DNA of 64,000 nt from a bacterium (GCA_029551285.1 JAKPFT010000024.1:1317-65316), one strand, 5' to 3'; positions 18,182-53,930 are shown, numbered from the stretch's first letter. Numbers and translations are program-made. The notes: generated by a model from the letters alone, not told the origin.

Positions 18182-18186
18182 GTAGG

Positions 18187-19908: not shown

Positions 19909-19974
19909 CCGTACCTTGAGCGGGCCTAATTTCCCCCTGGCTCTAAGCCGGCAATTGTGGCCGGAAATTTTCTC

Positions 19975-21633: not shown

Positions 21634-21649
21634 TTTTCCCCTCGGCTGG

Positions 21650-25164: not shown

Positions 25165-25938
25165 TCACGGTACTGGCGCGGTGTAGGGCCAGCAACCAGG
25201 ATAAGTGGGATAAGAACTTCCCCCGCCAATGTACCAGCGGTTGGGTTCATCAACCTTCCACTGGTGAAGGAAGAGGTACTCTACATGGCCGTCAGCAAAA
25301 AGGAGATTGCAGGCACGGGCGTGGGGAAAACTTAAAGGTTGACTAAAAGCAGAACCGGTGAAATAGGTATCCCAGGGTTTGACATCGGCTAACATGGCCC
25401 GTTTGTCTGGTTTGAAGACCTTCCCTAACTTTACCGGTACCTGGGCAAAATTCTGCCGGCTTCCACCAACACCCCTTTCCGTGTATTGCCAGACAGAGTT
25501 AATGCCGTAAGTGGAACGGCCCCAGCGCATGACGCTTCCCCAGAGATGCGGCCAGTCACGATAAGTGTTCTGGCAACTGGCCGTCCAGTTGACCTTGTTT
25601 TCGGCCGCCGGACAGAAAACCACGCCGTGGAGCCGATTGTAACAGACCGGGCCTGTATTTCGGTCAGTATCCGCCATGTTCAGGTAACGGTCGTTGTCAG
25701 TTAAGCACTTGACCCAGCCCTGGGAGGGACCATAGGCGTCGTTATAGGGCAACCAGTCGTTATAATCCTGGGAGTACATGTGGAAAGCCAGGCCGATTTG
25801 CTTCAGGTTATTCAGGCAGGTAGTCTGTCTGGCTTTTTCCTTCGCCCCGGAAAGAGCCGGCAGCAGCATCGCTGCTAAAATCGCAATGACCGCAATTACC
25901 ACCAGCAACTCAATCAGCGTAAATCCCTTACCTCTCAT
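25165..25938 (-). CDS. Prepilin-type N-terminal cleavage/methylation domain protein (DUF1559 / H-X9-DG pseudopilin-like)
   Basis: MRGKG|[24 protein letters not shown] class-III signal with Glu at +5. C-terminal [12 protein letters not shown] (H-X9-DG). RBS GAAAGGAGGTGG. Confidence 0.9.
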
Positions 25939-28628: not shown

Positions 28629-28697
28629 GAAGCAAGAAAAGACAAAGAAAAGCTTTTATAAGTCTTTGACAGAACCGGGCTTTTAACAGGAGGCAAC

Positions 28698-33925: not shown

Positions 33926-33955
33926 TTGACAGCAAAAGCAGCCTGGTGGTATAAT
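33926..33955 (+). promoter_or_regulatory. Sigma70-type promoter of the GntR/LacI-type regulator gene
   Basis: TTGACA (33926-31), 18-nt spacer, TATAAT (33950-55), 37 nt upstream of the ATG at 33992. Confidence 0.65.
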
Positions 33956-33991: not shown

Positions 33992-35113
33992 ATGCACAGG
34001 GGTAAAGCTCGGCCGCTTTATGCAGGTATCTACCTGGAACTGAAGGATAAAATCCAGCAGGGAAAACTTAAGGTTAACCAGCGGATGACCGAGCGGCAAC
34101 TGAGTCACCGGTACCAGGTCAGCCGGGTCACCATAAGAAAAGCCCTCTCCCTTTTAGTCAGAGAAGGTTATCTCCACCGCCTGCCTCGTCTGGGAACTTT
34201 TGTCACTTCCACTTCTTCGGCTCCTGGAATCTTCCCCGGCCGGTATAGCAATCATACCATTGGCATTCTCATTCCCTGTATCACCTTTTCCCTTTACGCC
34301 GGCATCGTCCGGGGCGCTGAAGATTTTCTTCTGACCCGGGATTACACCATTATGGTGGGCAGTTACGATGCTAATCCTGAGCGGGAAAAGTCATACCTGG
34401 AAAGATTTACCTGCCAGGGTATCTCCGGTCTGGTCATCGCTCCCAGTTACAATTCCAGGCCTGATGTTTATCTGGAGTTGCTGGTAAAAAGAAATATTCC
34501 CTTCGTCCTGGTGGATACTCCCCTGCCAGGGATTGACGCCGATGTGGTCCAGACCGACGGAGTGAAGGGCGGCTATCTGGGGACTAAACAATTGATTGAG
34601 ACTGGCTGCCAGAAGATTGCCTTCCTGTGCGGCCATCTGGGTCGCTGTTCCAACTCCTCTTTCCGGCTTCAGGGTTATCGCCAGGCCATCGTGGAAGCAG
34701 GTTTAGATTTCAATCCCGAACTTATCTTTGAAGGCGACTTCTCCAGAGAGTTCGGATACCAGACAGTAAAAAAACTGCTCTCCCGGGAAAGTATTGACGG
34801 TATCTTCTCAGCCAATGAACCCATTACCTTAGGGGTTCTGCAGGCAGTGAGCGAACTTCCTGATGACAGGCGGAAGGAAATTTTAGTAGTTTCCTTTGAC
34901 GAGATTTCCACGCCGGTTGAATATTCCAGCCCTTTAATGGTGGTGCGGCAACCGCGGATGATGATTGGCCAGGTAGCCGCTCAGATTCTGTTAGAGCGCA
35001 TTAAAGAAAAAAAGCGGCAGGAGAATTCTGCTTACCGGCAGATTTTCCTCTCCCCGGAATTGAATGGCTCCAGATTTCTGGAAAAAACGGTTTTCTCAGA
35101 GGTGAACGGCTAA
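33992..35113 (+). CDS. Transcriptional regulator: GntR-type winged HTH fused to a LacI/PBP1-type sugar-binding domain
   Basis: N-terminus has the GntR HTH signature ([41 protein letters not shown]). The C-terminal ~280 aa are periplasmic-binding-protein-like ([23 protein letters not shown]). Confidence 0.85.
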
Positions 35114-35427
35114 GGGTAGTGTCAAAAAAGGAAGAAACAAGAATGAAAAGAAAGGGAACAAACTGGCTCACTCAGAATGCTCCGGCACAGACAGGGACTA
35201 CGCCGAAATCGGTAGCTCGGCGAACTCGCTCGCCAGGGGGCGAGCTCAGACACCGCCGAGTAAGGTATTGCGTCCCGGATGGAATTGTCCGGTCCGCTTA
35301 CCGAGCGCTGCCGCTTTTCGTCTTGTCTTGTATCTGTGCCTTCGCAAATCGTTCGCCAGTTATTCCCTTCCTTTTCTGACAATGGAGAGGAAGCGGAGAG
35401 AGATAAGGAATGGCAGAACCATTGACA
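35114..35427 (+). ncRNA. Structured intergenic element, copy 2
   Basis: Starts immediately after the regulator TAA (35111-13). About 90% identical by eye to copy 1. Lies between the regulator and the pseudopilin-like operon. Confidence 0.6.
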
Positions 35428-35501
35428 GAATTAGAAAAGACAAAAAAGAATTGAAGTCCTTCACAGAACCAAGAAACAGGAGCCAACTATCAGGAGGAAA
35501 G

Positions 35502-36113
35502 ATGGAAAAGAAAGGATTTACGCTGATTGAGTTGCTGGTGGTCATTGCGATTATTGCGATTTTAGCCGCGATGCTGCTACCGGCTCTGTCGACGGCAAGA
35601 GAAAAGGTCAGGGAAGCCAGCTGCCTGAACAACCTCAAGCAGATTGGCCAGGCGATTCACATGTACCTTAATGATTATGAATTTTGCTGGTTCCAGTCAG
35701 GAGAAGCCGGCCGACAGCCGCGCTGGTATGACCCGTGGGTTTTGCCCAAATACTGCGGTGGCGGGACTGTAGCGACCAACAAAGTTTTTAAGTGCCCTTC
35801 TCATAGGCAGTGGCCTGTCTGGGGAACTCAGTCAAGTTACGCCATGAACTTTTATCTTGACCCAACCTACACCGGAATTCTCCACTCCGGACCTGACACC
35901 CTTAGCCGACGCGCCCATCTGGTAATCTTTGCTGACGGAAGCGGTAGCAATCATACCTTCTCTGGCAGCCATCTTACGCGTTTAGGACCCCGCCACACCA
36001 AAAGAGGTATTAACTTTCTTTATGTTGACGGCCATGTGCAGCTGGCCAGACCAGGAGATCTACCGGAGGATGTCTTTTTCGCCAATAATAGTAAGAAAAC
36101 CGTTGTCTGGTAA
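35502..36113 (+). CDS. Pseudopilin-like protein 1 (prepilin-type N-terminal methylation domain, DUF1559-like)
   Basis: MEKKG|[37 protein letters not shown] before the ATG at 35502; the track ORF from 35268 runs through the repeat element. C-terminal [11 protein letters not shown] motif. Confidence 0.9.
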
Positions 36114-36128
36114 AACGAGGAGGGAGAA

Positions 36129-36950
36129 ATGGAGAGAAAGAGTTCGGGCTTCACTTTAATTGAGTTGCTGGTGGTGGTAGCCATCATTGCTATTCTGGCC
36201 GCGATGTTGCTTCCGGTTCTGGGCAAAGTCCTGGAGAAGGCTTCCCGGTCGAACTGTCTTAACAACCTGAAGCAGATTTACCTCGCCTGCTGGATGTACG
36301 CCAGCGATTACGAAGACCGATTACCGGCTTTTGGTAGCGATTACACCACCTGGACAGCCAACGACAGTTATACCCTTCTATGCGGACGGGTTCCCAATGC
36401 CACCGGTCCAGGTAGTGTAATACCCAGATATATTGACAATCCGAATATTCTCCAGTGCCCCAGCCGGAAAAAAACTGCGTTTGATGTTAGTGTGCGCAAC
36501 GACCCGGCTCAGGCGTTCCGCCTTGGCAATCTTAACATTGGCTACACCATTGCCTCCGGTTTGCATATGCGGCGGGAACCCAACTACCGGGTGGTAGCCT
36601 GTGACCGAAAATGGAGTACCAGCACCAATGCTTGCACCGGTACAAGCCGGGGTAACGGCTGGTGCATCAACGGCTGGTATAATCAGCCCAGAGACAATGA
36701 CAGTACAAGGTTTTTCTCCAGCTCGGAAGGTATCCCCAACCACTGGCCGGACGGTCTAAATGTGGCTTACCTGGACGGCCATGTCGCCTGGGTGCCGATG
36801 GGGCCAATGATTGATGTTATCCCGCCAACTCAGCAATGGAACACCCATGTCCGCGGCTGGCATCTGGGGGCGGCGCCTGACCTTTCCAATCCCCAGATGG
36901 CTACCGCTTACACAAGCCCGAACGCCATTATGATGAGAGAGCCGTTCTGA
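36129..36950 (+). CDS. Pseudopilin-like protein 2 (DUF1559-like)
   Basis: MERKSSG|[24 protein letters not shown]; C-terminal [13 protein letters not shown]. Confidence 0.9.
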
Positions 36951-36968
36951 AAATGGAAAGGAGGAAAG

Positions 36969-37601
36969 ATGGAAAAGAAAGGATTTACGCTGATTGAGCT
37001 TCTGGTGGTCATTGCGATTATTGCGATTTTGGCCGCGATGTTGCTTCCGGCTCTGTCCAGGGCAAGAGAAAACGCCCGGCGGGCCAGCTGCGTGAATAAC
37101 ATGAGACAGATCGGTCTGGCCGTGGCCCAGTACTGTCAGGATTGGAACGGAAGTTTCCCGCAAAACACTTCGGGAGGAGACAATCCCGCCAACGCTTCCT
37201 GGTGCCGCCGTCTTTACCAGCAGGGCTACATCAAGGACAAGAAAATTGTCATCTGTCCTTCAGCCAGAAAATGGGGTACCTTTATGTTTAACTACGACAC
37301 CTGGAACGCTCCTTTAACCTACAGCGTACCAAGCTCGCCCAGTGAGGCCTATGCCGGCAACCTCAGCTTTGTCAGAGATACCTCCAAAGCAATTTACCTT
37401 CTGGAAGGGTACTGGTTTTACAACGGTGTTTATTATGGCTGGCACTGGGTGGGCAAGGTTACCAGCACCGCAAGCTGCCTGAACCCTGTTAGCGGCGACC
37501 GAAAACCCCATCCCAGGCATAACCTGAAACTGAATTTTCTCTTTATGGACAACCACGTGGAGTACCTGGCCGTGGAAGATATTGCCAATCTGGTCTGGTA
37601 G
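36969..37601 (+). CDS. Pseudopilin-like protein 3 (DUF1559-like)
   Basis: MEKKG|[24 protein letters not shown]; C-terminal [17 protein letters not shown] (DG replaced by DN). Confidence 0.9.
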
Positions 37602-37620
37602 TTGGAAAAAGGAGGCCGAG

Positions 37621-38382
37621 ATGAGAGGGAGAAAGGGTTTTACCCTGATTGAGCTGTTGGTGATTATTGCGATTATTGCCATCCTGGCAGCGATGCTTCT
37701 TCCAGCCCTGGAAAAGGCCAGGAAAAAAGCTGAGCAGGCAGCCTGTATGAATAACCTGAAACAATTAGGGCTCGCTTTGCGGATGTACTGGGATGACTGG
37801 GATGAGCGGATTATTCCCGCCTGGCTGGGAGCGCCGCCTGGCGGATTGGGTGCCCAGCCCCAGCCAAGAAGGCCGGCCATCTGCGAACTTCTCTATGTTA
37901 ATAACTACATCAACAACACCGAACTCTGCCGGTGTCCAGCCTGGGGATTTAAGAGAACCCGGTATCCCTATGAACCTAACCTTACCTGGGGATGGAGTGG
38001 AGCAGGCTACTATGCTGGAGGTACCAACCCGAATATCCCTGCCGCTGGCGTGTTCCTGTTTGTCTTTGACTACGGGTTTAACGGCATGTGGCCTGGCCAG
38101 GGTTCTGGTTTTGGCGACTGGAGTAAGAAGTTGAAGGATGTGCAGCGGCCTTCCCAGATTGTGGCTATGAGTGAAGCCAATGTTTCTGGCTATCTGGATA
38201 ACGCCTATTACAACAACACCTTTGCCGCTTTCACCAGGCCAGTCATCAGTCCTTCTTCCTATTATGGCCAGCCCTGGAAGGTACCCCTTCACCTCACAGG
38301 TTTCAACTATCTTTTCTTTGATGGCCATGTGGAATTCCTGTCCGCTCAACAGGCCTCAGACATCAGATACTGGATACCCTGA
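37621..38382 (+). CDS. Pseudopilin-like protein 4 (DUF1559-like)
   Basis: ATG at 37621 after AAAAAGGAGG. MRGRKG|[25 protein letters not shown]-terminal [12 protein letters not shown] (H-X9-DG). Confidence 0.9.
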
Positions 38383-39510
38383 ATGGTTGGTGCCAGAAGA
38401 ATCCCTGGAGATCTGAAGATAAAGGGTAACAGGAAGTTCTGCCTGACTGGAGTGTTGGTCCTTTTCTTCTGTTCCTGCCTTCAGGGAGCCGGCTGGCTTG
38501 ACCGGGCTTATCCCTGCCGGCAAAAAATCACCATCAGCGATGGTTTCTACCTCATCGGTTCGGACCTGAAAAACTTTCCGCTCCTGTTAGTTTTATCTGA
38601 CGGCAGCAACCCGCTTTTCCAGAAAGCGAAACCGGACGCTGCTGACATCACCTTCACCGCGGATGATGGAACCACCAGACTACCTCACGAGATAGAAATC
38701 TTTTCTCTCTCGCCGGCCAGGCTGGTCTGCTGGGTGGTCCTTCCTTTTCTTTACGCGGACCGGGAAACCGCCATTTATCTTTATTACGGTTCTTCCCAAC
38801 CCCTGGCTTGTCTGCCGGCTACGGATGTCTGGAAGGAAGGTTTTCTGGGTGTCTGGCACTTTCAGGACGCAGTGGCCCCGGATGGCAGAGCGGTGGCCGT
38901 CAAGAATTCTGCCGGAAAAACTCTGACCGGCCTGACTAATAGCAACTTCGCCGTTGAAGGAAAAATCGGCCAGGGGATGGCTGGCACAGTCAGTTTTGAC
39001 CGGAAGGATGGTCCGGAATTTACCCCGGAAACTTCTTTCAGCGCTGAGGCCTGGGCCTTCTGCAGCGAAGTACCCTTCCGGACAACGCTGTCGGTGCTGG
39101 GGAAGGGTTCCGGTGGCCGTGGCTGGTCGCTTTACTGGCATGAGGCTGGCCGGTGGCAGACCAATATCACCCATGACTACCGGAACGAAAACACCCGCTT
39201 TTACCTGATGGCACCTGACCAGCCAGCCGGTCAGTGGCGACATCTGGCGGTCACTTACGAAGCGGAAAGCAGAAAACTGCGACTTTTTGTTGACGGCCTG
39301 GAGAAAGCCTCAGGGAGAGTGCCAGACGGAATTAAGGAGTTTTCCGTGGCTTCACCTTTTTCTATCGGTGGAATTAAAGGAAGGATAGACGAAGTCAGAC
39401 TTTCTCAGGTAGCCCGTTCTCCAGACTGGGTGGCAGCCTGTGAAAAAAATCAGCGTCAGCCTGGCCGTTACATCCGGTTTGGAAAGGAAGAAGTTGTTAC
39501 TCATTCCTGA
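38383..39510 (+). CDS. DUF2341 plus LamG (concanavalin A-like lectin) domain protein
   Basis: N-terminal hydrophobic anchor. The DUF2341 pattern reads W..Y.CRQKITI..NFPLLLVL..DITFTADDGTTRLPHEIEIF..WVVLPF..IYLYYG. The C-terminal LamG-like segment reads WRHLAVTYEAESRKLRLFVDG..GRIDEVRLSQVARSPDWV. The ATG directly abuts the upstream stop. Confidence 0.85.
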   Translation: MVGARRIPGDLKIKGNRKFCLTGVLVLFFCSCLQGAGWLDRAYPCRQKITISDGFYLIGSDLKNFPLLLVLSDGSNPLFQKAKPDAADITFTADDGTTRLPHEIEIFSLSPARLVCWVVLPFLYADRETAIYLYYGSSQPLACLPATDVWKEGFLGVWHFQDAVAPDGRAVAVKNSAGKTLTGLTNSNFAVEGKIGQGMAGTVSFDRKDGPEFTPETSFSAEAWAFCSEVPFRTTLSVLGKGSGGRGWSLYWHEAGRWQTNITHDYRNENTRFYLMAPDQPAGQWRHLAVTYEAESRKLRLFVDGLEKASGRVPDGIKEFSVASPFSIGGIKGRIDEVRLSQVARSPDWVAACEKNQRQPGRYIRFGKEEVVTHS

Positions 39511-39517
39511 AAGGAAA

Positions 39518-39826
39518 AAGTAGTGTCAAAAAAGGAATGAAAGAAGAATGAAAAGAAAGGGAACGAACTGGCTCACTCAGAATGCTTCGGCACAGACAAG
39601 GACTACGCCGAAATCGGTTGCCCGGCGAACTCGCTCGCCATCTGGCGAGCTCAGACACCGCCGAGTAAGGTATTGCATCCCGGATGGACTTGTCCGGTCC
39701 GCTTACCGAGCGCGTGCGCTTTTCGTCTTGTCTTGTAGCTGTGCCTTCGCAAATCGTTCGCCAGCTGTCCCCTTCCTTTTTTGACACAGTGGAAAGGAGA
39801 GGGAGAGAGACAAGGACAGGCAGAAC
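39518..39826 (+). ncRNA. Structured intergenic element, copy 3 (first unit of a tandem pair)
   Basis: Conserved GTAGTGTC begins 9 nt after the TGA at 39508-10. Has a perfect 16-bp terminal complement, GTGTCAAAAAAGGAAT.. / ..CTTCCTTTTTTGACAC. Confidence 0.6.
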
Positions 39827-40134
39827 CAAAAAAGGAATAAAAGAGGAATGAAAAGAAAGGGAACGAACTGGCTCACTCAAGGTGCTTCGGCACAGACAAG
39901 GACTACGCCGAAATCGGTTGCTCGGCGAACTCGCTCGCCCGGGGGCGAGCTCATACACCGCCGAGTAAGGTATTGCGTCCCGGATGGACTAGTCCGGTCC
40001 GCCTACCGAACGCGTGCGCTTTTCGTCTTGTCTTGTATCTGTGCCTTCGCCAATCGTTCGCCAGCTGTCCCCTTCCTTTTTTGACAGTGGGGGGAGGAAG
40101 ATCGGGAAGATAAGGACAGGCAGAACCATTGACA
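39827..40134 (+). ncRNA. Structured intergenic element, copy 4 (second unit of the tandem pair)
   Basis: Exactly 300 nt downstream of copy 3 (TTGACA at 39781 and 40081; ATGAAAAGAAAGGGAAC at 39548 and 39848). Its 5' end lacks the GTAGTGTC segment. Confidence 0.6.
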
Positions 40135-40201
40135 GGCATAAGAAGACACTAAAAAACAACTCAACATTCTTGACAGGCCAAGAGAAACCTGGAGGCAGAA
40201 A

Positions 40202-43200
40202 ATGAAAAAGGTGCTGCTGGTGGTGTTAATTTCTGGTGCCCTTTGCACCGGGACAACCCTCAGCGCTGAAGGCCTGCCCTCTTTTGTCAACTGGTCGTAT
40301 CAGGACGCCTATCAGCGAGACAATGGCTGCCGCAACCTGATTTCCCTAAACGGGTGGTGGCGCTGGCAACTGGCTGGGAAGGAAGTCTCGCCACCAGAAA
40401 CAGGCTGGGGCTATCGGAAGGTACCCGGCTACGGTATCAACTTCAATGTTCTGGAGGCTAACGGCCAGATTTGGAAACTGAAGCCGGAAGAAAAATGCAG
40501 CCTCTGCTGGGTGGAAAGAGAGTTTACTGTGCCTTCAGAATGGAGCGGAAAGAAGGTTCAGGTAATCTTTGAATCCATTGAAGGAGACGGCGAGGTCTGG
40601 CTGGACGGACAAAGGTGTGGTTACACCTGGGACGGATGTGTCTATGCCCTGGAACTGAAACCACCCTATCGCACCAGCCCCTACCGGCTTTCCGTGAAGT
40701 CAAACGGCGTGGTAAGCAATGTCTGGCTGAAGGCGCTACCGGCTGGGCCGGTAATCACTGACGCTTATCTTTCCACCTCGGTGAGGAAGATGACCGCCAC
40801 CATAAGAGCCAGGGGTACTGGAAAACCGGAGAATAAATTGAAGGTGGTGATTACCGACTACCGTCAACCTGACAGAATTGTCCGGAGCGCCGGACCATTT
40901 TCCCTTCAGGCTGATGGCCAGGGCTGGAAACTGGAACAGGAGTTTGACTGGAAGGATGCTAAACTCTGGTCCCTGGAAAGCCCGAATCTCTATAACTACT
41001 ATCTGGAACTTTCTGACAGGCAGGGCAAAGTTATTGACCGGATCTTCCCCATCCGGTTCGGCTTCCGGGAAGTCTGGATCAAGGATGGCTCTTTCATGCT
41101 CAACCATCAGCGAATCACCATCACCAACGATATCCACTCTCCTTTAGCCATTCATCCTGCCAGAAACATGGGCCGCTCTTATAGTCCCTATACTGACGAG
41201 GACACCTGGCGCCGGATTATCAGAAGGTGGAAGGACCTTGGCGTCAACTGCGCTGAATACCGGTGGGGTGGAAATATTGATGACGAACTTCTTTTCCGGG
41301 TGGCTGATGAAGAAGGTTTTTTCATCACCATGAGCGTGCGAGGACTGGAACGAAATCCTGTCGTCCGGTCCATCCCGGCAATGGCTGCTTACAACTACGA
41401 TGTCAACGCTTATCTGATTTTTCCCCGGCGGCACTGCCCCTGTGTGCCCTTTTATTATCTGAGCAGCCTGGCTAACGCCTGGGACTATGCCCCCTTTCAC
41501 TTAGGGGAAGACTTTGATACCGAAAAACTTTTTGGAAAGAGCAACAAGGAAGAAAGAGACCTGATAGAAAAACTTGACCCGGTAAGAGCGCCGATCTCTG
41601 GTTCTTACAGCGGCGGTGGGAAAACCGAACCTTTCCACTCCTCCATGAACTACATCGGCATTCACGTTGACCTGCAATCCTACGAGAACTGGCCGCTGCG
41701 GTGGTCACAACACCGGAACAAACCGCTGCTGACTTACGAAATGGCTGTTCCGCCCTACATTGCGGAATGGTACCAGCGGCCTTCCCGGGGAACCCAGGCC
41801 CATGGTGTCCCTGGAGTTCTTCCCTTTTTTATGGAATGTGGCGCCATCTACCTGGGCGAAGAGCCGTATCTTCTGGAGCCGAAAGAAAAAATTGCCGGAT
41901 GGCTGGAAAACGTGGCAAAAGGGAAAAATCCAGGCTATCCGGCCCGGGGCGGCAGTTTGACCTACGAGAAGGTGGCGGAAATCTGCACTCATCATGTCTT
42001 TCGTTCCTGGAAGACCTATGGGGTCAATATGGGCTTTTTCGTCCAGACAAGGGAGTTTTTTGAAGAGCCGCGGATGGTTTTTCAACCGGTCAAGGTTGAC
42101 CCCAGACAGCCCGGCATCTTTCCCGACGCAGCTATTACAGAGCACATTTTCACCATGGGTCCTTTGCGACCACTGGGAGAAATTGCGCGAAAAGCCCTGA
42201 GCAAGCTTCTAATTTATATCGGCGGACCAAACGGAGAATTCACCCTGAAAGACCACTGTTACACCTCAGGAGAAACTATCACCAAAGCCGTGGTCATGCT
42301 GAATGAGTACGAACGAGCACTAACCGTATCCGGGACCTGGCAACTGTGCCAGAAAAACGGGCCGGTGCTTCTTTCCGGCAGCTGGCCAGCCACGGTCTTG
42401 CAACCCGGTGAGATTGCTCCAGCCAGGGTCCATCTCAGTCTGACCGCACCAGCAGTTAAAGAAAGGACTGATTTTGTGCTGAAACTGAAGGCCCAGGCTG
42501 ACCAGCCCGGAAGTCTGGAAGACGAATTTTCGCTGACAGTTTTCCCGCCAGCAGGCAAGCCCGTGGTGAAACCAGGTACCCAGATTTTTGTTTATGACCC
42601 GGTAGGTGATACCAGCCAGCTCCTGCGGCAGGCTGGCCTCAATTTCCAACCGGTCACCGACAGTCTTCCTGACCCGGAAAACGGCCTTTTAATTGTTGGC
42701 CGCAACTGTCTTAAAGGAGAGCCTGGCCAGATGTTTAACAGACTCCTCTACCGAAAAATGACCTATGATTTTGCCACCAATGTAGCCAACGGAATGAGGG
42801 TGCTTATCTTTGAACAGGCCCTGAATAATCTCTGGGGACTGAAAACTGAACAGGCCCGCTGGCGAAGAACCTTTATCACCGCACCAGGCCATCCTGTCTT
42901 TCAGGGCCTGGAAGCCAGCGATTTTCTTTATCTGAAGGGACACGGCAACCTCGTTGACCCTTATCCTGAGGAACCGCCAGCCACCACGGACCGAATTGCC
43001 GGCAGCCGCTTTCCCCGCTGGGGTCTGGACAATACGGTGGTAACTTATTCTCTGGTGAGGCCGCAGTTGGGCGCCTGTCGTTCTCTGCTTTCCTGCGGTT
43101 TTGACCTTCAGGAAAGCGCCCTGCTGGAGGTGGCCGCGGGCAGGGGAAGGATGATTTTCTGCCAGGTGGATGTCACCAACCGCTACGGCCAAGACCCGGT

Positions 43201-43684
43201 GAGCACCAGACTGGTAAACAATCTCCTCCACTACCTGAGCCATGCGGCGCCGCCAGACCCGACAGTGCCCGGGCCAGTTGACCTGGTTCGGGAAGGGCTG
43301 GATGAGGCTCCGCTTCCGGTCAGTACGGAGAAGGTTTTTATGGTGGACAGACCGGCCGGTCCTATTTCCTGGGGGATTACCCTGGCTGACCTTTATTTTG
43401 AAGGATTCCTGGACCTGCCGGTGATGAAATCGCCGGAAGGAAAAAGATACCTTTACTGGCCACTACCCGGGAAAAAGGAAGTCGCCCATACGCTGAACCG
43501 GAGAAACTTCAAGACCAGGTGGCAGCGGATGAAATCTTTAATGATTCTTTCGGCCCTGACCATCAACCAGGGTGGCACCTCAGAGACTTTTCCCAGGCCG
43601 GCGCTGCAAAATGATAGCGAGGAACTTTATCCTCAGGAGTGGCTGGAAGGATTTGTCCATCCTTATACCCTGATGCAATGGTGA
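40202..43684 (+). CDS. Large secreted GH2-like protein (family 2 sugar-binding / beta-sandwich N-terminus)
   Basis: Signal peptide MKKVLLVVLISGALCTGTTLSAEG. SPNLYNYYLEL..IRFGFREVWIKDGSFMLNHQRITI matches the GH2 beta-sandwich-to-barrel linker signature, as also seen in the GH2 gene at 60.6 kb. Catalytic residues were not verified. Confidence 0.75.
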   Translation: MKKVLLVVLISGALCTGTTLSAEGLPSFVNWSYQDAYQRDNGCRNLISLNGWWRWQLAGKEVSPPETGWGYRKVPGYGINFNVLEANGQIWKLKPEEKCSLCWVEREFTVPSEWSGKKVQVIFESIEGDGEVWLDGQRCGYTWDGCVYALELKPPYRTSPYRLSVKSNGVVSNVWLKALPAGPVITDAYLSTSVRKMTATIRARGTGKPENKLKVVITDYRQPDRIVRSAGPFSLQADGQGWKLEQEFDWKDAKLWSLESPNLYNYYLELSDRQGKVIDRIFPIRFGFREVWIKDGSFMLNHQRITITNDIHSPLAIHPARNMGRSYSPYTDEDTWRRIIRRWKDLGVNCAEYRWGGNIDDELLFRVADEEGFFITMSVRGLERNPVVRSIPAMAAYNYDVNAYLIFPRRHCPCVPFYYLSSLANAWDYAPFHLGEDFDTEKLFGKSNKEERDLIEKLDPVRAPISGSYSGGGKTEPFHSSMNYIGIHVDLQSYENWPLRWSQHRNKPLLTYEMAVPPYIAEWYQRPSRGTQAHGVPGVLPFFMECGAIYLGEEPYLLEPKEKIAGWLENVAKGKNPGYPARGGSLTYEKVAEICTHHVFRSWKTYGVNMGFFVQTREFFEEPRMVFQPVKVDPRQPGIFPDAAITEHIFTMGPLRPLGEIARKALSKLLIYIGGPNGEFTLKDHCYTSGETITKAVVMLNEYERALTVSGTWQLCQKNGPVLLSGSWPATVLQPGEIAPARVHLSLTAPAVKERTDFVLKLKAQADQPGSLEDEFSLTVFPPAGKPVVKPGTQIFVYDPVGDTSQLLRQAGLNFQPVTDSLPDPENGLLIVGRNCLKGEPGQMFNRLLYRKMTYDFATNVANGMRVLIFEQALNNLWGLKTEQARWRRTFITAPGHPVFQGLEASDFLYLKGHGNLVDPYPEEPPATTDRIAGSRFPRWGLDNTVVTYSLVRPQLGACRSLLSCGFDLQESALLEVAAGRGRMIFCQVDVTNRYGQDPVSTRLVNNLLHYLSHAAPPDPTVPGPVDLVREGLDEAPLPVSTEKVFMVDRPAGPISWGITLADLYFEGFLDLPVMKSPEGKRYLYWPLPGKKEVAHTLNRRNFKTRWQRMKSLMILSALTINQGGTSETFPRPALQNDSEELYPQEWLEGFVHPYTLMQW

Positions 43685-44274
43685 GTGCTCCCTTCAGAAA
43701 AAGGAGAACTCTTCTCCGGAAGGTTTTCACCGGCGCCGGGCTGCTCTGTCTGGCAGCAGTGCTGATGCTGAACTTTGCCCGGGTTCAAATCGGCGGCCGG
43801 GAATGCGACCGGCAGGCAAGAATCGCCAGGGAAATGGTGACTATGGCTGATTTTCTCGTGTGTTTCCGGAAGGCCCACGGAAGATACCCGGCCACATCAG
43901 AGCAACTCCAGGCAAAACAATGGCTGCCCTTGATACCCCATCATTGGCACCAGCATTACCGGTATGTGCCACCTTCTATTGACCCGGTGCCAGCCGGCAC
44001 TGTCCTTTTCTTTCAGCGCCGACCCTCCTGGCATTTCCACGGCCTGGCCTTTGGCCAGTTGCGGGTTTTCTGCGTGATAGAAGAAGACGGCCAACCGGTT
44101 CAGTCCTGGTTCTGTGTTCCCAGAAACCGCTATAACGGCTCTCTCCGGAAGATATTTTTCTGGTACTTTCTCTTTCATCCCTTTACCGGTCCAGGAGAGA
44201 TTACACCTGAAGAAGCCCAGAAGTACGCTGATTACCAGGCAATCTTAAAAAAACTACGAGGAGGTAAAAGATGA
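43678..44274 (+). CDS. Membrane-anchored hypothetical protein
   Basis: ATG at 43678 overlaps the upstream stop (ATGGTGA). N-terminal basic stretch plus TM segment GAGLLCLAAVLMLNF. Confidence 0.6.
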   Translation: MVSAPFRKRRTLLRKVFTGAGLLCLAAVLMLNFARVQIGGRECDRQARIAREMVTMADFLVCFRKAHGRYPATSEQLQAKQWLPLIPHHWHQHYRYVPPSIDPVPAGTVLFFQRRPSWHFHGLAFGQLRVFCVIEEDGQPVQSWFCVPRNRYNGSLRKIFFWYFLFHPFTGPGEITPEEAQKYADYQAILKKLRGGKR

Positions 44275-45041
44275 GCACCAAGACACACCTTGGGGTGGCT
44301 TTTTTACTTCTTTTTTCCACTGTTTCTCTGGCCTGGGAAATTCTCAATCCCCGGCCCCTGGAAAGTCAAAAGCAAGAGGAAGTTATCATCAAAGGTTCAG
44401 AAAGATTCGTCAACCGCCAGTATGAGGAAAAGTTTCCCCTGGCTGAAAAGTTGAAGGAGCAGGGCTGGTTCTTTGTTGACCTGAAGCCTTACTGCAATGT
44501 CAACATCTTTTCTGAAGCCGGACTGACCACGCCGGTTAAGTATCCTTACATGAACGTGGGCAAACAGGTCTTCTACGGCGTCCCTTTTGAAATTATCCCT
44601 CCGGAAAGCAATGACAACAGGACGGCAATCGCTCTGGCTTCCACCTATCTGCTCACCAACACCCTGCCAGACAGTGTGGAAGTCCCGGTTGGTCGCAAAA
44701 GCGTGGTCTTCTACTTTCTGCACACCACCTACTACACCGACCCGTCTGGCCAGCAGTACTACCGCATTAACTACGAAGATGGTACCAGCCAGGAAATAAA
44801 AATCATTGGCCGGGTCCACTGCGGGGACTGGTACCACGCTGATACCCGTATCTACACGGAAGATGTCCACTACGTCTTAGTGCCAGCCGCTAAAGACTCT
44901 AAAACCTTCCACCGGAACATGCACATCCTCCAGTGGAAAAACCCTTTTCCCGAAAAGGTGGTGAAATCTATCATTTTCCATTCTGACAGAAAGGCACCGA
45001 TGGGTATCTTTATCGTGGCCGTTACCGGTCACGCCGGGTAA
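44271..45041 (+). CDS. Secreted hypothetical protein
   Basis: ATGA start/stop overlap with the upstream gene. Signal-like MSTKTHLGVAFLLLFSTVSLAWE. No motif recognised. Confidence 0.65.
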   Translation: MSTKTHLGVAFLLLFSTVSLAWEILNPRPLESQKQEEVIIKGSERFVNRQYEEKFPLAEKLKEQGWFFVDLKPYCNVNIFSEAGLTTPVKYPYMNVGKQVFYGVPFEIIPPESNDNRTAIALASTYLLTNTLPDSVEVPVGRKSVVFYFLHTTYYTDPSGQQYYRINYEDGTSQEIKIIGRVHCGDWYHADTRIYTEDVHYVLVPAAKDSKTFHRNMHILQWKNPFPEKVVKSIIFHSDRKAPMGIFIVAVTGHAG

Positions 45042-45056
45042 CAACATGGAGAAAAA

Positions 45057-47411
45057 ATGAGCATGAAAAAAACTGTATTTTTCTTTCTGCTAACTGCAAC
45101 CCTGGTCCCGGGTCAGGAGGCTTCTCTAAGCCTCACCATTGACTCCCTGAAAGGTATTTACCTTGCGGCGCCGTTAGGCGAGGTGGAGCAGGAAACAGTT
45201 TCTTTTCTTCAGGAAGGTTTCCAGAAGTTTTACCAGGTTTCCCTGCCCCTTCTTTCTGAAAGTCTTCCCGAGCCAGTAGTGGTGCTTGGCCGAGCCGCGG
45301 CCCTGAAAGAAAAACTGGTCAGCGAATCCGAGCTGGAAGCCCTCAGGCCGGACGGCTACCTCATCCGGACCAGCCGTCAACGTCTGGTGATCGCCGGAGC
45401 AGACTCCTGGGCAACCTACTATGGAGTAGTGGGGTTTTTCCAGCAAGCCGGGGCAAAATTTTTCCGGGCCATCGCCGGAAAGTTCAAACCCTGGCCCTGG
45501 TTCCAGGTACCCTTTCCGGAAAATCCGGAGAGAAAAATTTCCCTTTCCCTGAAGGAGAAACCTGTCTTTGCCTACCGCTGTGGTGGGTGTCCTGTCTTCC
45601 GGCAGAGCCGGCTGGCTGACCCGAAGAAAGGCGCTACCCCGGAAATTTTTGATGCTGCTAAAACCGGTTCTAATCTGTGGATTGACCACACGGCCGGGTA
45701 CCTGGTGCCGAAACTTCTTTATTACGACCAGCATCCCGAGTACTACGCCATGGGCAAGGACGGTAAAAGAATTGCCAAAAACGGCTTCAATGACCATCAA
45801 ACTCCCCTTTGCCTTTCCCATCCTGATGTCACTAAAATCTCCATTGAGAGAGCCTTAGCCTGGATTGAGAAAAATCCGCACGAACGTTTCTTCATGATTA
45901 CCTACGGTGATACCAACTTCTGGTGTCAGTGCCCGGAATGCCTGAAGATGGACCCGGTCCCAGGGCAATACGCCACCAGACTTCTCACCTGGGTCAACGC
46001 CATCGCCAGGGAAGTAGCCAGGCGTTACCCGGACAAAATCCTGATTACCTTTGCCTATGCTGGTTCCGATACCGCGCCACCCGGGATCAGACCGGAACCA
46101 AATGTGTGGGTTTGTGGTTCCACGGGCCTGGGGAATCTTCCCTTCTGGGACCACGCTTTTGCCGGTGAGCCACCAGACTGGCTGAAGCAGAATATGGCCA
46201 AGGTTGATGGCTGGTTGAAAATTGCTCCCCACCAGTATCTGGTTTGCGAATACTTAAGCAACGTCTATCTTCCAGCCATGCTGGATACCACTGCTTCCAG
46301 ATTAAAGACTTACGGTAAAAAAGGATTGCGCGGAGTCCTTTTTACTTACGGGGCTCCAGCCAATTTCCGCAGCCTCTGGAATTATCTCTGGGGTCAGTTG
46401 ATGTGGAACCCGGACCAGGATGTGGAACAGCTCACCCGGGAGTTTCTAACTTTTGCCTATCCGGCTGCGGCCGAGCCGCTTTTCAGGTTTTTCCAGCTCA
46501 GCCGCCAGCGTTACCAGGAAACCCTGAAGGAGAAAGCCGGACTGGACCAGATGTATCCGAAGGGATACTACCAGGCTAAGTTTGTTCAGGAAGCCCTGAC
46601 CTGCTTTCAACAGGCTGAGGAAAAACTGGCCAAAGAAAATGCCCTGCTGAAAGAAATCCAGAATGAAGAAGCCCTGTTTCTGCAGAGCGTGTTAGAACAT
46701 CCCCCTGCACTGCAGTTGACTGAAGAACTGAGAAAAATTGTGGCTCTCGGCTTTAACCGGCTCAGTGCCCTGGGAAAAGCCACCGGCAAAACCGCTGACT
46801 TCTTAAGCCGTGTTAACAGCCTGGCGCTTGATGTTGAAAGAAGAATTCCCGGATACCGAGAGCTGATAGAAGAAGTTTTTGGTCAGTTGCCTGAAGGACA
46901 GCCGGTAAAACTTGCTGACGGCTTGCGGCTACCGCCGGAAATGTTTCTCCGGGCCGATTTAGGACCGACAACCAGCGCCGACTGGGTGCATCCTGACTAC
47001 AAGTTTCCCCCGAAGACTTACGTGGGGGTGCTGCAGTCAGCCAGGGACTCCCGGGGCCGGCCAACCAGTTCCGTGATGGTGGCAAAATTCAAACTGCTGG
47101 AGAAAATCTCTGGTCCGGCTACCCTGGAATTGGAAGGTCAGGACGCTATTACCAAATGGGCGGCTGGCAATCAGCGGGCAATGAGTTTTCAGGCCGCCAT
47201 GAAAATCAGCCTCAACGACCAGGAAATCTATTCCGGTCCGGCTGGTTTTGTCCGGGGCAACTGGTCACGCCGCAGTTTCCAGATTAAACCTGGAATTCTT
47301 CAGGCAGGAGAAAACACTCTAAAAATCGCCAATATCAGCCAGGGATGGGCCTTTTCCACCTGTTACCTGTTAATCAGCGATGCGGTACTGAGATGGGGTC
47401 AGTCCAATTAA
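45057..47411 (+). CDS. DUF4838-family glycan-active protein, paralog 1
   Basis: Signal peptide. GH20b-like N-domain (LVIAGADSWATYYGVVGFFQQAGAKFF). HPEYYAM; Cys cluster FWCQCPECLKMD; MWNPDQDVEQLTREF. C-terminal beta-sandwich-like tail. Confidence 0.85.
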   Translation: MSMKKTVFFFLLTATLVPGQEASLSLTIDSLKGIYLAAPLGEVEQETVSFLQEGFQKFYQVSLPLLSESLPEPVVVLGRAAALKEKLVSESELEALRPDGYLIRTSRQRLVIAGADSWATYYGVVGFFQQAGAKFFRAIAGKFKPWPWFQVPFPENPERKISLSLKEKPVFAYRCGGCPVFRQSRLADPKKGATPEIFDAAKTGSNLWIDHTAGYLVPKLLYYDQHPEYYAMGKDGKRIAKNGFNDHQTPLCLSHPDVTKISIERALAWIEKNPHERFFMITYGDTNFWCQCPECLKMDPVPGQYATRLLTWVNAIAREVARRYPDKILITFAYAGSDTAPPGIRPEPNVWVCGSTGLGNLPFWDHAFAGEPPDWLKQNMAKVDGWLKIAPHQYLVCEYLSNVYLPAMLDTTASRLKTYGKKGLRGVLFTYGAPANFRSLWNYLWGQLMWNPDQDVEQLTREFLTFAYPAAAEPLFRFFQLSRQRYQETLKEKAGLDQMYPKGYYQAKFVQEALTCFQQAEEKLAKENALLKEIQNEEALFLQSVLEHPPALQLTEELRKIVALGFNRLSALGKATGKTADFLSRVNSLALDVERRIPGYRELIEEVFGQLPEGQPVKLADGLRLPPEMFLRADLGPTTSADWVHPDYKFPPKTYVGVLQSARDSRGRPTSSVMVAKFKLLEKISGPATLELEGQDAITKWAAGNQRAMSFQAAMKISLNDQEIYSGPAGFVRGNWSRRSFQIKPGILQAGENTLKIANISQGWAFSTCYLLISDAVLRWGQSN

Positions 47412-47424
47412 CGAAGGAGAAAAA

Positions 47425-50250
47425 ATGGCGAGAAAAATGCTAATGCTGCTTCTGGTTTCCCTGATAGTCTCGGGAAACCTTTACTCTCTGGAAAAGGTGC
47501 TGGTTCTGGAAGACTGCCAGAGCAACCGCTGGCAGGGAAAAGGTGCACCACAGACCTGTCAGTACCAGCCACCTCTTGGCCAGGCAAGGCCGGGACTAAA
47601 GGTAAGTTTGCCAGCCGACATTTTCCTTCCTCTGGAGGCTAACTTAGAAGGAGCCGGCAGTCTGGCCTTACGCGCTGCTTACCAAAATCCGGTGAAAATC
47701 ATTCTGAGAATAAAAAGCGGGGAAGGCAATTTTTCCGTTCAGTTTTCCGCTGGTCCGGGTGAAGAGGTTGTTCTTCTTCCCCTGGGTGTCTTTGAACGGG
47801 CAGCCAGCACAGCCGGCTGGGAAAAAATTGACGGGATACAAATCCTGGCCGAAACTGACTCTCAGGCGAAAACCACCGGTTTCACCTTGCTGGGCCTTCA
47901 GGTCCTGCCGCCGACAACCACGGTGGCTGGCGAAGAGCTTTTCCTGGTGCGGCCGGTCAATAGAATCAATCCAGTTGGACACGCCTGGCCACTTTACGCC
48001 ATTCTGTCGGAAGCAGTCTATCCGGAGAAAACAGAGCAATCTCCACCGGTCTTGCAACGGTTGTTGAAGGAAATGTACGGTCTCACTCTGCCGGTCAACC
48101 CGAAAACACTCTCCGCTGCCCAAGGAATTAAAAATGTGATCCTGATGGGTCCGGAAGCGGCCCTCAAATCCGGTACAGTGAGCCGGACTCAACTGGAAGA
48201 ACTGGGCTATTTTGGCCTTTTCGTGAAAGCGGAAGACGGCTTGGTGACGATTGCCGGCCTTAACCGGCACGGCACCGCCTATGGCACCTATGCTTTCTTA
48301 GAAAAACAGGGCTGCCGCTTTTTCGGTGGAAACTGCCAGCAGATTCCACGGAAAGAAGAGAAAGTAGTTCTTGCCTGTCAGTTCCAGGACAAGCCCTTCT
48401 TTCCTGGACCGCGCATCGGGCCAGGCTATGAAATTTACGGAGCGCCCTCTGACGCCTGGGGACTGGCTAACAAGGCTGAAAACCAGGAGTTTTTCACTGA
48501 CATCTCCTGGGGATGGCGGGAACATACCGCCGGCTACCTGGTTCCCAGACAACTTTACTACGACAAACACCCTGAGTATTTCCGTCTTCAAGGAGATGGC
48601 ACCCGGTTACCGAAGGATACCAGCAATTTTCGTACTGTGATCTGTACCACCCATCCTGATGTCCTGAAGATTTCTGCCGAACGCGCCCTGAGATGGATTG
48701 GCCTGCAGCCTGACCGGAAGTTTTTCTCCATCACTCAGGGGGATGACCATGAGTGGTGCCGTTGTCCCCGCTGCCGCTCCATGGAGTACCAGAGTGGTAA
48801 TTACAGTGATATGATGCTTTACTGGGTTAACTATGTTGCCAGAGCGGTGGCGAAAAAGTATCCGGACAAAGTGCTGATTACTTACGCCTATGGTCCCACC
48901 CAGCCACCGCCGGTCAAGCTGAAACCGGAGCCCAATGTTTACGTTTTTTACTGCGCCTGGCCGAATGCCACTTCTGCGCCCTGTGGCATCCGGGACTTTG
49001 ACGCTCCGGAAAACTATCTGGCCAAACACGAAATTGAAGGCTGGCTCAAGGTGGCTCCTGGCCGGGTGGGACTTTACGACTACAACGCTTACGGCTGCTA
49101 CACCTTAAACGGGATGGCCTGGAAGGTTAAATGGTGCGCCCGTCGCAACATGTGCGGCTTTATGTATTGCGGAATCAACCAGTCCTTTCAGCCGCTGTTC
49201 CGCTATGTCCACTCCAAACTGAACTGGAATCCCTTGCTGGAAGTAGCAACCCTGAAGCATGATTTTATTTACGCTTATTACGGTGCCGCGGCACCGGTGA
49301 TGGAAAAAATTATCAACTCCATCTATGACCGGATTGAGTACGGTCACTATGATAGCCGTATGCACGGGGTTCCGCCGGCTGACTACTGGAGCAAACCTTT
49401 TGTTACAGAAACCCTGGCCCTTTTTGACCAGGCTATCTCGCTTTTGCCTGGGGACCGCCGGGGATTAACAAGCGAGGTAATTAAGGACCGAAACTGGTTT
49501 GTGGATAACTGCCTGGCCGCGACCAGACCAGCCGGCCGGAAATATACAGAGGAAGAACTGGAAGTCTTCGCTCTCTGCCTGAAGGAATACATCGCCAGAT
49601 GGCTGGCTGAACACGCTGAACAGGTAAACAAGGCCTGGAAAGAGAAGAAAAAAGCCCCTGGCTATGAGGAAATCGCCAGCAAACTCTGGAACTGGGCCAG
49701 AATCAAGGTGGAAACTGACCTGCCGGAAAACGAGGTGCCGCCTGTCCTGACAAGGTTGATGACTAACCCGGTGGAAACCATTAAGAAGGAGATGGTCACG
49801 AATTTTGTAGAAAAAATCCCGGACGGCTTACGTATCAGCGCTCACGCCTTCACCGGTGGCCAGGTGTGGTCAAAATACGGCTGGCTGTGTGAACCTAAGG
49901 ATGGGGCCATCGTGCGGGGAACAATGACAGAATTTTCCCGGATGCAGGCCAGATTCACCCTGGACCGGTTACCGCCAGGAGAAAAGGCTTTTCTGGAAAT
50001 AGAAGGACAGGATAGCGATAAGTACTGGTGCCAGCCGGTTCCCATTCAGATTCTGGTCAATGGCAGGAAGGTTTTTGAAGGACGCAACGGCTTCGTCAAA
50101 AGAGGATGGTCCCGTCAGACCTTTCCTCTGCCTGAAAATGTCCTGAAAACAGGCGAAAATGTGATTGAAATTCGCAACTTGGCCAACAGCGACAGTCTGA
50201 TTTCCCACTGGGTAATTATCCATGAGGTACTGGTAAAATTTCGCCACTGA
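47425..50250 (+). CDS. DUF4838-family glycan-active protein, paralog 2
   Basis: Signal peptide; VTIAGLNRHGTAYGTYAFLEKQGCRFF; HPEYFRL; EWCRCPRCRSME; LNWNPLLEVATLKHDF. Confidence 0.85.
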   Translation: MARKMLMLLLVSLIVSGNLYSLEKVLVLEDCQSNRWQGKGAPQTCQYQPPLGQARPGLKVSLPADIFLPLEANLEGAGSLALRAAYQNPVKIILRIKSGEGNFSVQFSAGPGEEVVLLPLGVFERAASTAGWEKIDGIQILAETDSQAKTTGFTLLGLQVLPPTTTVAGEELFLVRPVNRINPVGHAWPLYAILSEAVYPEKTEQSPPVLQRLLKEMYGLTLPVNPKTLSAAQGIKNVILMGPEAALKSGTVSRTQLEELGYFGLFVKAEDGLVTIAGLNRHGTAYGTYAFLEKQGCRFFGGNCQQIPRKEEKVVLACQFQDKPFFPGPRIGPGYEIYGAPSDAWGLANKAENQEFFTDISWGWREHTAGYLVPRQLYYDKHPEYFRLQGDGTRLPKDTSNFRTVICTTHPDVLKISAERALRWIGLQPDRKFFSITQGDDHEWCRCPRCRSMEYQSGNYSDMMLYWVNYVARAVAKKYPDKVLITYAYGPTQPPPVKLKPEPNVYVFYCAWPNATSAPCGIRDFDAPENYLAKHEIEGWLKVAPGRVGLYDYNAYGCYTLNGMAWKVKWCARRNMCGFMYCGINQSFQPLFRYVHSKLNWNPLLEVATLKHDFIYAYYGAAAPVMEKIINSIYDRIEYGHYDSRMHGVPPADYWSKPFVTETLALFDQAISLLPGDRRGLTSEVIKDRNWFVDNCLAATRPAGRKYTEEELEVFALCLKEYIARWLAEHAEQVNKAWKEKKKAPGYEEIASKLWNWARIKVETDLPENEVPPVLTRLMTNPVETIKKEMVTNFVEKIPDGLRISAHAFTGGQVWSKYGWLCEPKDGAIVRGTMTEFSRMQARFTLDRLPPGEKAFLEIEGQDSDKYWCQPVPIQILVNGRKVFEGRNGFVKRGWSRQTFPLPENVLKTGENVIEIRNLANSDSLISHWVIIHEVLVKFRH

Positions 50251-50262
50251 AAAGGAGACCCG

Positions 50263-53681: not shown

Positions 53682-53930
53682 AGTAGTGCAGAAGTGTGTC
53701 TGACTTCGGAAAGATTTCTGCGCACACGCCTTGCCGCAGACAAGACTACGCAGCTAATCGGTCGCGGGAGCGAACTCATTCGCCTTCTGGCGAACTGGAG
53801 ACACCGCCGGGTAAGGTGGGCGTCCCGGATTATGTTTTTCGGGAGGCTTACCGAACGCTGCCGCTTTGGCTGCTTGTCTTGTAGCTGCGCCATCGGGATA
53901 GCGTGGCTTGAAATCTCCCCTCGTTGACAC
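53682..53930 (+). ncRNA. Structured intergenic element, copy 5 (diverged; supplies covariation)
   Basis: The core 53733-53890 aligns to copies 1-4 at roughly 80% identity by eye. The flanks differ in sequence but remain mutually complementary. Confidence 0.55.

Follow-up and report, generated by a model that had tools for sequence, protein, structure and literature searches.

The region considered here lies in a 64,000-nt stretch of bacterial DNA (JAKPFT010000024.1 in GCA_029551285.1; hereafter the window) and comprises four consecutive prepilin-type genes of the DUF1559 family, W1 to W4, followed by a gene for an exported DUF2341-LamG protein (LamG). It makes up the front half of a conserved operon for glycan degradation, which opens with the gene of a sugar-type regulator and continues into genes for large exported proteins related to carbohydrate-active enzymes (CAZymes). 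The gene identities and their operon linkage are close to certain. Domains were scanned in all open reading frames (ORFs) of at least 180 amino acids (aa), and W1 to W5 denote the five DUF1559 genes found, the fifth lying outside this operon. The features of the operon are as follows.

33926..33955, plus strand: sigma-70-type promoter consensus, TTGACA-18-TATAAT with a TG extension (12/12 matches; a consensus match only)
33992..35113, plus strand: sugar-type regulator with a GntR winged helix and a LacI-type periplasmic-binding-protein (PBP) sensor (Pfam GntR, Peripla_BP_1, Peripla_BP_3, Peripla_BP_4)
35502..36113, plus strand: W1, DUF1559 prepilin-type protein, 203 aa (ORF list, Pfam)
36129..36950, plus strand: W2, DUF1559 prepilin-type protein, 273 aa (ORF list, Pfam)
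36969..37601, plus strand: W3, DUF1559 prepilin-type protein, 210 aa (ORF list, Pfam, structure model)
37621..38382, plus strand: W4, DUF1559 prepilin-type protein, 253 aa (ORF list, Pfam, TIGR04294)
38383..39510, plus strand: LamG, exported DUF2341 and LamG (concanavalin-A-like) protein, 375 aa (Pfam, structure model)
40202..43684, plus strand: exported GH2-like protein with a signal peptide, 1160 aa (family models)
43678..44274, plus strand: 198-aa protein with one N-terminal hydrophobic segment and without family match, its position varying among relatives
44271..45041, plus strand: exported 256-aa protein without family match
45057..53613, plus strand: three exported DUF4838 proteins of 784, 941 and 1116 aa (Pfam)

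The initial annotation of this DNA, made by a model from the sequence, had described four consecutive pilin-like genes of these lengths with spacers of 15–19 nt, and the ORF list agrees exactly (15, 18 and 19 nt); for W4 the mechanical ORF begins at a TTG at 37582, and the gene start was taken as 37621. The 0-nt gap reported between the fourth gene and LamG is likewise present, the first base of LamG directly following the W4 stop codon. Upstream, the perfect extended sigma-70 consensus lies 37 nt 5' of the regulator gene. Sec-type signal peptides could be read from the sequences of the GH2-like, 256-aa and DUF4838 proteins, and also of the giant proteins encoded beside W5. DUF4838 is the catalytic domain of glycoside hydrolase (GH) families GH163, endo-acting on complex N-glycans, and GH185, a 6-sulfo-GlcNAcase (PMC10570127). 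Since the window holds these enzyme genes together with genes for a sulfatase, a BNR-repeat (sialidase-like) protein and a second GH2, the earlier term 'glycan-utilisation locus' is a fair description. The pilin region was also found on an 85.8-kb contig of Joint Genome Institute (JGI) metagenome 3300010338.

The operon could be compared with orthologous loci in two related metagenome-assembled genomes (MAGs), L002 and L003, at ~65–90% protein identity; one of these MAGs is GCA_023818865.1, labelled Candidatus Omnitrophota. In both, the regulator, in the identical position, the four pilin genes, LamG, the GH2-like gene, the 256-aa gene and the DUF4838 genes form a tight single operon with gaps of 7–91 nt (in L003, in order, 15, 28, 91, 18, 8, 7, 36 and 20 nt, followed by a 4-nt overlap and a 2-nt gap). 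Co-expression of the pilin-like genes with the enzymes has its strongest available support in this conserved arrangement. All four pilin genes have one-to-one orthologs in the two loci, and the rates at which they have diverged are very uneven: protein identity is 85–91% for W3 and 83–85% for W4, 49–51% for W1 and 44–46% for W2, with the 256-aa protein (83–86%), the GH2-like protein (80–82%), the DUF4838 proteins (74–78%), LamG (68–70%) and the regulator (64–65%) giving the scale. W3 is the most conserved gene of the operon and W2 the fastest-evolving. That two of the pilins are the most constrained proteins and two the least speaks for roles that are not redundant, rather than for meaningless tandem copies, and suggests that W3 and W4 are a conserved core pair while W1 and W2 are a rapidly diversifying one.

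W1 to W4 are old paralogs of one enormous family. They begin like a major type IV pilin or a GspG pseudopilin, and their heads are small and highly variable, with a pair of invariant cysteines. All five window members score above the gathering score of PF07963 (N_methyl), and W1 to W4 exceed the cut-off of TIGR02532; read from the sequence, each begins with a basic leader of 5–7 residues followed by G/FTLIELLV with Glu at +5, in keeping with the class-III signal that had been claimed for the four. The PF07596 (DUF1559/SBP_bac_10) scores of W1 to W5 are 35.5, 24.3, 45.7, 32.9 and 46.5 bits (gathering score 23.3), from alignments that take in only about positions 2–53 of the 268 in the profile (its first 30–50 positions). 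The H-X9-DG C-terminus, also claimed for all four, is imperfect: by eye it is exact in W4 and W5, W1 and W2 carry H-x10-DG and W3 carries H-x9-DN, and only W4, at 21.2 bits, passes the 19-bit cut-off of TIGR04294 (W1 18.3, W2 16.6, W3 without a reported score). The C-terminal His and Asp columns are invariant in an alignment of 58 sequences, the invariant positions of which are, in W3 numbering, F6–E10, P27, C41, N44, Y55, C96, H184 and D194. Mutual identity among W1 to W5 is 31–38% and falls mostly within the helix.

The size of the family is considerable. W3 has more than 7,990 relatives, and among the matches listed none except the ortholog exceeds about 45% identity over most of the length of W3; the source names of the relatives read 'DUF1559 domain-containing protein' or 'prepilin-type ... 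H-X9-DG protein', and the former is also the NCBI annotation of the orthologs. A profile built from the 58 members matches 64,518 clusters (50% identity) at E<=1e-30 and 261,499 at E<=1e-10. In architecture, N-terminal signal, cysteine pair and C-terminal His/Asp, W1 to W5 resemble the DUF1559 proteins of Planctomycetota, Verrucomicrobiota and Lentisphaerota, where several copies per locus region, adjoining genes for exported proteins, are also found; compared with typical members they are short, and they come from an unplaced lineage with the Omnitrophota-labelled MAG as its nearest. Planctopirus limnophila has 68 paralogs, of which two are essential (PMC10632474). The searchable literature on DUF1559, SBP_bac_10 and H-X9-DG offers remarks on family size, proteomics and essentiality, and no functional study was found in it. 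The predicted structure of W3 (pLDDT, the predicted local distance difference test, 77) has a pilin-type fold, with a helix at 8–58, a small beta-sheet and low-confidence loops. Sequence, profile and fold searches of the PDB gave matches to major pilins and GspG over the N-terminal helix and nothing further, so that the DUF1559 head domain is without a solved relative.

The initial annotation had likened the four genes to the minor pseudopilins GspH, GspI, GspJ and GspK, and this analogy is not supported. Models of GspH, GspI and GspJ gave 16–31 bits against cut-offs of 44–80, with only some 20–40 N-terminal residues aligned, and the Pfam families for the I, J and K proteins of the type II secretion system (T2SS) had no match among W1 to W4. 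The best E-values among NCBIfam matches belong to models of major pilins (GspG, ComGC and PilA), every one of them scoring far short of its cut-off; for TIGR01710 (GspG, cut-off 88.85) the best score is 41.7 (W3, positions 1–88 of 134) and the other three reach 31–38. As a positive control, the genuine minor pilins of a deltaproteobacterial locus (L041) score beyond the helix, with PilV at 52.6 against a cut-off of 52.2 and GspH aligned over 1–97 of 169. Glu5 is kept in W1 to W5, so none of them is GspK-like. As a GspH/I/J/K set, W1 to W4 therefore fail on family match, on Glu5 and, within the 64-kb window, on linkage to a secretion machinery; they are instead members of the single DUF1559 family.

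Likenesses to other pilin systems are correspondingly partial. The Pul T2SS of Klebsiella has a major pseudopilin, PulG, four minor ones, PulH, PulI, PulJ and PulK, the enzyme pullulanase and control by MalT. The window operon resembles it in that pseudopilin-type genes appear to be sugar-co-regulated with large secreted glycanases, and in its GspG-like helix (best NCBIfam model TIGR01710), but there are no genes for GspC–F, GspL–O or a secretin nearby, no members of the minor-pseudopilin families, and TIGR01710 scores are at most 41.7 against 88.85. Type IVa pilus (T4aP) modules run in the order FimU-PilV-PilW-PilX-PilY1, and here too four different pilin-like genes precede a Sec-exported, non-pilin putative adhesin, with the machinery elsewhere; however, matches to PilV, PilW, PilX and PilY1, detectable in L041, are lacking, and all four genes belong to one family. 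The Verru_Chthon cassettes (TIGR02596, TIGR02599), which recur in the Planctomycetes-Verrucomicrobia-Chlamydiae (PVC) group, likewise contain four pilin-like genes, but W1 to W4 match these models only N-terminally (TIGR02596 at most 23.9 against 70, TIGR02599 at most 17.9 against 256.5).

The gene behind W4 had been described as coding for a membrane-anchored DUF2341+LamG protein that might serve as a tip adhesin. Its domains, DUF2341 (PF10102, residues 85–140) and Laminin_G_3 (PF13385, residues 211–351), are confirmed, both above cut-offs; the anchoring is doubtful, as the N-terminus, a basic stretch and a 15-residue hydrophobic stretch followed by LQGA/G, looks in the sequence like a cleavable Sec signal. 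Fold matches of the structure model (pLDDT 82) are to lectin-type jelly rolls, among them the trans-sialidase lectin domain, the binding domains of clostridial neurotoxin and NTNH and, at rank 43, the lectin module of the PilC pilin of Streptococcus sanguinis (PDB 7oa8). S. sanguinis, with the modular minor pilin PilC and with PilB (PMC8179133), also has a concanavalin-A-like lectin fold tied to type IV filaments, but the lectin module is there fused to a pilin, whereas LamG has a Sec-type signal, a gene of its own and an additional DUF2341 domain. Translational coupling of LamG to W4 is predicted from the 0-nt gap and from the 4-nt overlap of the orthologous genes in L002. The DUF2341 and LamG architecture is also MshQ-like, and one 30%-identical homolog is named 'MshQ' by JGI, an automatic name only; the Msh families gave no match, and no msh biogenesis or msh pilin genes were found as neighbours.

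Proteins with DUF2341 and LamG are widespread in bacteria and archaea, some being fused to ExbB/MotA (PF01618). A genome scan for this family was made with a 5-sequence alignment, a broad 16-sequence alignment being too divergent, and pilin-like genes lay within 10 kb of the DUF2341-LamG gene in three of the 64 loci with usable flanks, namely the two orthologous loci and the unrelated L041, where a genuine type IV pilus (T4P) minor-pilin cluster is ~5 kb off with unrelated genes between. The other 61 have no pilin-like gene within 10 kb, which led to the rejection of a general partnership between DUF2341-LamG proteins and pili, and the link seen here is lineage-specific. In a Lentisphaerales MAG (L008) a 33%-identical LamG homolog is flanked by a homolog of the 256-aa protein, directly upstream at 559–1422, and by a GH42 gene, and no pilin gene is present in the 1.5 kb of contig available upstream. 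LamG is, then, an exported protein of lectin fold whose ties to the enzyme set are no weaker than those to the pilins. As side observations, one Kiritimatiellae MAG carries at least five DUF2341-LamG paralogs (L016, L019, L025, L028, L032), none with pilin-like neighbours, and the conservation of the 256-aa protein, among the highest in the operon, together with its place beside the LamG homolog and GH42 in L008, may point to an accessory family of glycan loci not yet recognised.

These results bear on a lectin-tipped pseudopilus, in which a GspH/I/J/K-like set caps a filament and LamG is the tip lectin, for polysaccharide capture or enzyme display. Such a filament is less supported than the reading given below, and is considered improbable. 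The order of four distinct pilin genes and a lectin-fold gene does recall the T4aP module, and coupling to W4 and the jelly-roll matches are what keeps a tip adhesin in play, weakly; a second pair of LamG_3 and DUF1559 genes, under a LacI regulator, also occurs in a Lentisphaerae MAG (L159). On the other hand, no match to the minor pseudopilins, to PilV, PilW or PilX, or to PilY1 extends beyond the helix, in contrast to the L041 control, all four genes share Glu5 and one family fold, DUF1559 genes elsewhere are mostly single and not in fours, and LamG relatives are rarely near pilins, the Lentisphaerales one keeping company with the 256-aa protein and GH42 instead.

The initial annotation had further proposed a recurrent pairing of pilin-like genes with secreted CAZyme-like genes under sugar-type regulators, and a fifth pilin-like gene at the head of a minus-strand block of giant proteins. 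Both are borne out. W5 passes PF07963 and PF07596, and the giants lie downstream of it.

25165..25938, minus strand: W5, DUF1559 prepilin-type protein, 257 aa, first gene of a minus-strand operon (Pfam)
14543..25150, minus strand: three exported giant paralogs, weakly matching GH123_N (1166; 552+573; 1212 aa), with 5–66-nt gaps, downstream of W5

The 552-aa and 573-aa ORFs (18187–21633, minus strand) align with the N- and C-terminal halves of the 1166-aa and 1212-aa paralogs, which indicates one giant gene split by a frameshift or stop, either a pseudogene or an assembly error. Known CAZyme models cover only 100–200 residues of the ~1160–1210 aa of the GH2-like and GH123_N-like giants and, since these proteins are mostly without family assignment, they could be unclassified glycoside hydrolase families.

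Outside the window, six W3 homologs on six unrelated contigs gave eight sites, the only ground for their choice being full-length similarity or a long contig; L161 is truncated where its contig ends.

L159: AraC regulator (divergent), DUF1559 gene, then a 1005-aa exported protein
L159: LacI regulator, LamG_3 protein (905 aa), DUF1559 gene (the Lentisphaerae MAG)
L163: LacI regulator, GH42, DUF1559 gene, 1163-aa pectate-lyase/PA14 protein, 794-aa protein
L164: GntR and PBP regulator, DUF1559 gene, 1026-aa cellulase/GH39-like protein
L164: PadR, HAAS, HAAS, DUF1559 gene; without a large exported partner
L165: IclR regulator (divergent), DUF1559-like gene, 1083-aa GH42/GLMA-like protein
L165: DUF1559 gene, 1054-aa protein with a carbohydrate-binding module (CBM9)
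L162: DUF1559 gene divergent from a sulfatase gene; without a large exported partner

A co-oriented exported neighbour of ~900–1170 aa, mostly CAZyme-like, occurs at six of these eight sites, and at eight of ten when the two sites of the window are included; a LacI, GntR-PBP, AraC or IclR regulator stands alongside at six of the ten, and in L164 the regulator preceding the DUF1559 gene has the same GntR and PBP architecture as that of the window. The partners are without homology to one another and belong to different families (GH42/GLMA, cellulase/GH39-like, pectate-lyase/PA14, CBM9, LamG_3, GH2-like and GH123_N-like). It could be argued that, with DUF1559 genes so numerous and CAZyme genes so dense in these genomes, the expansion of paralogs and the shuffling of operons would bring the two together without any specific functional coupling, and that the proteins have a general envelope role: the family is huge, its members are spread evenly round the genome of Tuwongella immobilis (PMC8567305), and L162 and the second site of L164 have no CAZyme partner. 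This explanation is given a low probability, as gene order and tight spacing are kept across loci at 44–91% protein identity, W3 and W4 rank highest in the operon for protein conservation, and, by a rough estimate that assumes 8% of genes to be this long, neighbours of such length at eight of ten sites would arise by chance with a probability of <1e-6.

What is new in this needs to be separated from what is not. W1 to W4 are members of an already known family without assigned function, and at the level of annotation the genes are ordinary. In the searchable literature neither a module of sugar regulator, DUF1559 gene and giant exported CAZyme nor a four-pilin and LamG set in a CAZyme operon was found, and the regularity of the module, together with its conserved four-pilin/LamG elaboration, may be new.

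It is tentatively proposed that W1 to W4 are pseudopilins that act as adaptors specific to this locus and rely on a shared machine whose genes lie elsewhere. A prepilin peptidase, also encoded elsewhere, would cut them at G/F, and the N-terminal helix would hold them in the inner membrane, from where they would join or prime a short pseudopilus built by a shared machine of the T2SS/T4P type. Their variable heads might then recognise the co-expressed exported proteins, that is LamG, the GH2-like protein and the DUF4838 enzymes, and this recognition would carry the partners through the outer membrane or keep them on the cell surface. The operon would be switched on by a sugar signal, with W3 and W4 as the conserved core contacting the machine and W1 and W2 as fast-evolving, exposed parts.

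Several points weigh against this proposal. As the initial annotation had already stated, no domain of a T2SS/T4P ATPase, platform protein, secretin or prepilin peptidase was found among the scanned ORFs of the window, and for that reason the use of such a machine by W1 to W4 is an assumption. Classical T2SS are not known to need cargo-specific pseudopilins, and the adaptor idea has no direct precedent. All-against-all BLASTP found no shared docking domain among the giant partners. The neighbourhood sample is small (the ten sites above), and two of its sites, in L162 and at the PadR/HAAS genes of L164, lack the large exported neighbour. The window sequence is present in three DNA runs, all activated-sludge metagenomes, and in no RNA run. 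Finally, the heads are rich in aromatic residues, which would fit glycan binding as well as protein binding.

This last feature leads to the main rival, that the DUF1559 heads bind oligosaccharides released by the co-encoded enzymes, either as periplasmic binders anchored in the inner membrane or as retractile fibres drawing glycans inward, and so fulfil a Sus-like function without SusC/D. Tryptophan makes up 3.8–5.6% of the heads, and Trp, Tyr and Phe together 11–18%, compared with 4.5–9% in three cytoplasmic proteins of the window; the loci are governed by sugar-type regulators; the Pfam short name of the family is SBP_bac_10; and a Pfam scan of its ORFs found no sugar transporter domain in the plus-strand operon, the window ORFs as a whole having no Pfam match to a TonB-dependent receptor or SusD. 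Even so, a role in glycan binding or uptake is considered unlikely, since the PDB searches gave no likeness of fold or sequence to solute-binding proteins or carbohydrate-binding modules, planctomycete members of the family are often found flanking exported proteins in general (PMC8567305), and the need for four different binders in one locus is left unexplained.

If the adaptor proposal is extended to the whole family, the hundreds of DUF1559 paralogs of PVC-type bacteria could form a modular 'address' system, in which each sugar-regulated locus has its own pilin-like adaptor that plugs a shared pseudopilus machine into the giant enzymes, or the glycan, of that locus. This would be a counterpart of SusC/D in bacteria without such loci, with the four-pilin and LamG set as an elaborated, multi-subunit version, and in this wide form the idea is rather unlikely. 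The likeness to the SusC/SusD polysaccharide utilisation loci of Bacteroidota lies in the combination of a regulator, non-catalytic envelope proteins and exported glycoside hydrolases in a co-regulated locus; the differences are that homologs of SusC and SusD are lacking here, that the envelope part is pilin-like, and that uptake is putative.

A separate feature of the window is a dispersed, structured repeat of ~300 nt that interrupts the operon. It occurs five times, always on the plus strand, and its copies, here and elsewhere, are always co-oriented with the genes on either side.

~28318-28650, plus strand: repeat copy (window comparison)
~35115-35450, plus strand: repeat copy between the regulator and W1 (35115..35450), with a promoter-like TTGACA-18-AAGAAT at 35422-35451
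~39520-39820, plus strand: first of two tandem repeat copies between LamG and the GH2-like gene (39520..40156)
~39820-40156, plus strand: second of the tandem copies
~53700-53960, plus strand: diverged repeat copy (window comparison)

In L002 and L003 the repeat is not present at either junction, the gap being 15–17 nt from the regulator to W1 and 7–15 nt from LamG to the GH2-like gene, and it must therefore have been inserted in the lineage of the window. By these insertions the repeat seems to have broken up what was once one operon into three promoter-bearing units; TTGACA promoter-like boxes lie in its 3' part. Its core 18-mer has matches in 75 metagenome contigs. An alignment of 46 sequences comprised ~30 true copies, four of them from the window, and otherwise chance matches to the 18-mer; outside the window ~26 copies lie in the loci L086–L157. 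True copies are mostly from the same sample type, often at contig ends and in tandem runs of 2–4, and the repeat breaks metagenome assemblies. The repeat starts within ~25 nt of a co-oriented upstream stop codon at roughly 20 of 27 evaluable sites, and the next co-oriented ATG lies ~190–260 nt past the core 18-mer, within ~100 nt of the 3' end.

In an alignment of 31 copies the plus-strand structure has 47 pairs that are 98.4% paired (35–49% in slid controls), and seven pairs show compensatory changes, a number reached in 0 of 500 shuffles; there are also many one-sided changes to G-U. Searches of Rfam gave nothing credible, either at gathering thresholds over the whole window or in E-value mode over 39450-40250. 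An 86-aa ORF within the repeat was rejected as coding because the copies differ by 1-nt indels, and a role as a glycan-specific co-regulatory element was rejected because the repeat precedes very diverse genes, including housekeeping-like ones. It has the look of a structured RNA repeat, as yet undescribed, that lies within operons and is locked to one strand; a new kind of intra-operonic RNA element is one possibility, a mobile promoter or insulator resembling a miniature inverted-repeat transposable element another.

DUF1559 is among the largest paralog families of Planctomycetota, Verrucomicrobiota, Lentisphaerota and related lineages, with tens of copies per genome. The genes described here would not surprise a specialist on PVC bacteria, but the module in which they are set recasts the old question of what so many paralogs are for as a simple knockout experiment. 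The neighbourhood evidence leads to a testable hypothesis for how these bacteria may export, display or feed polysaccharide-degrading enzymes, in an operon without SusC/D.

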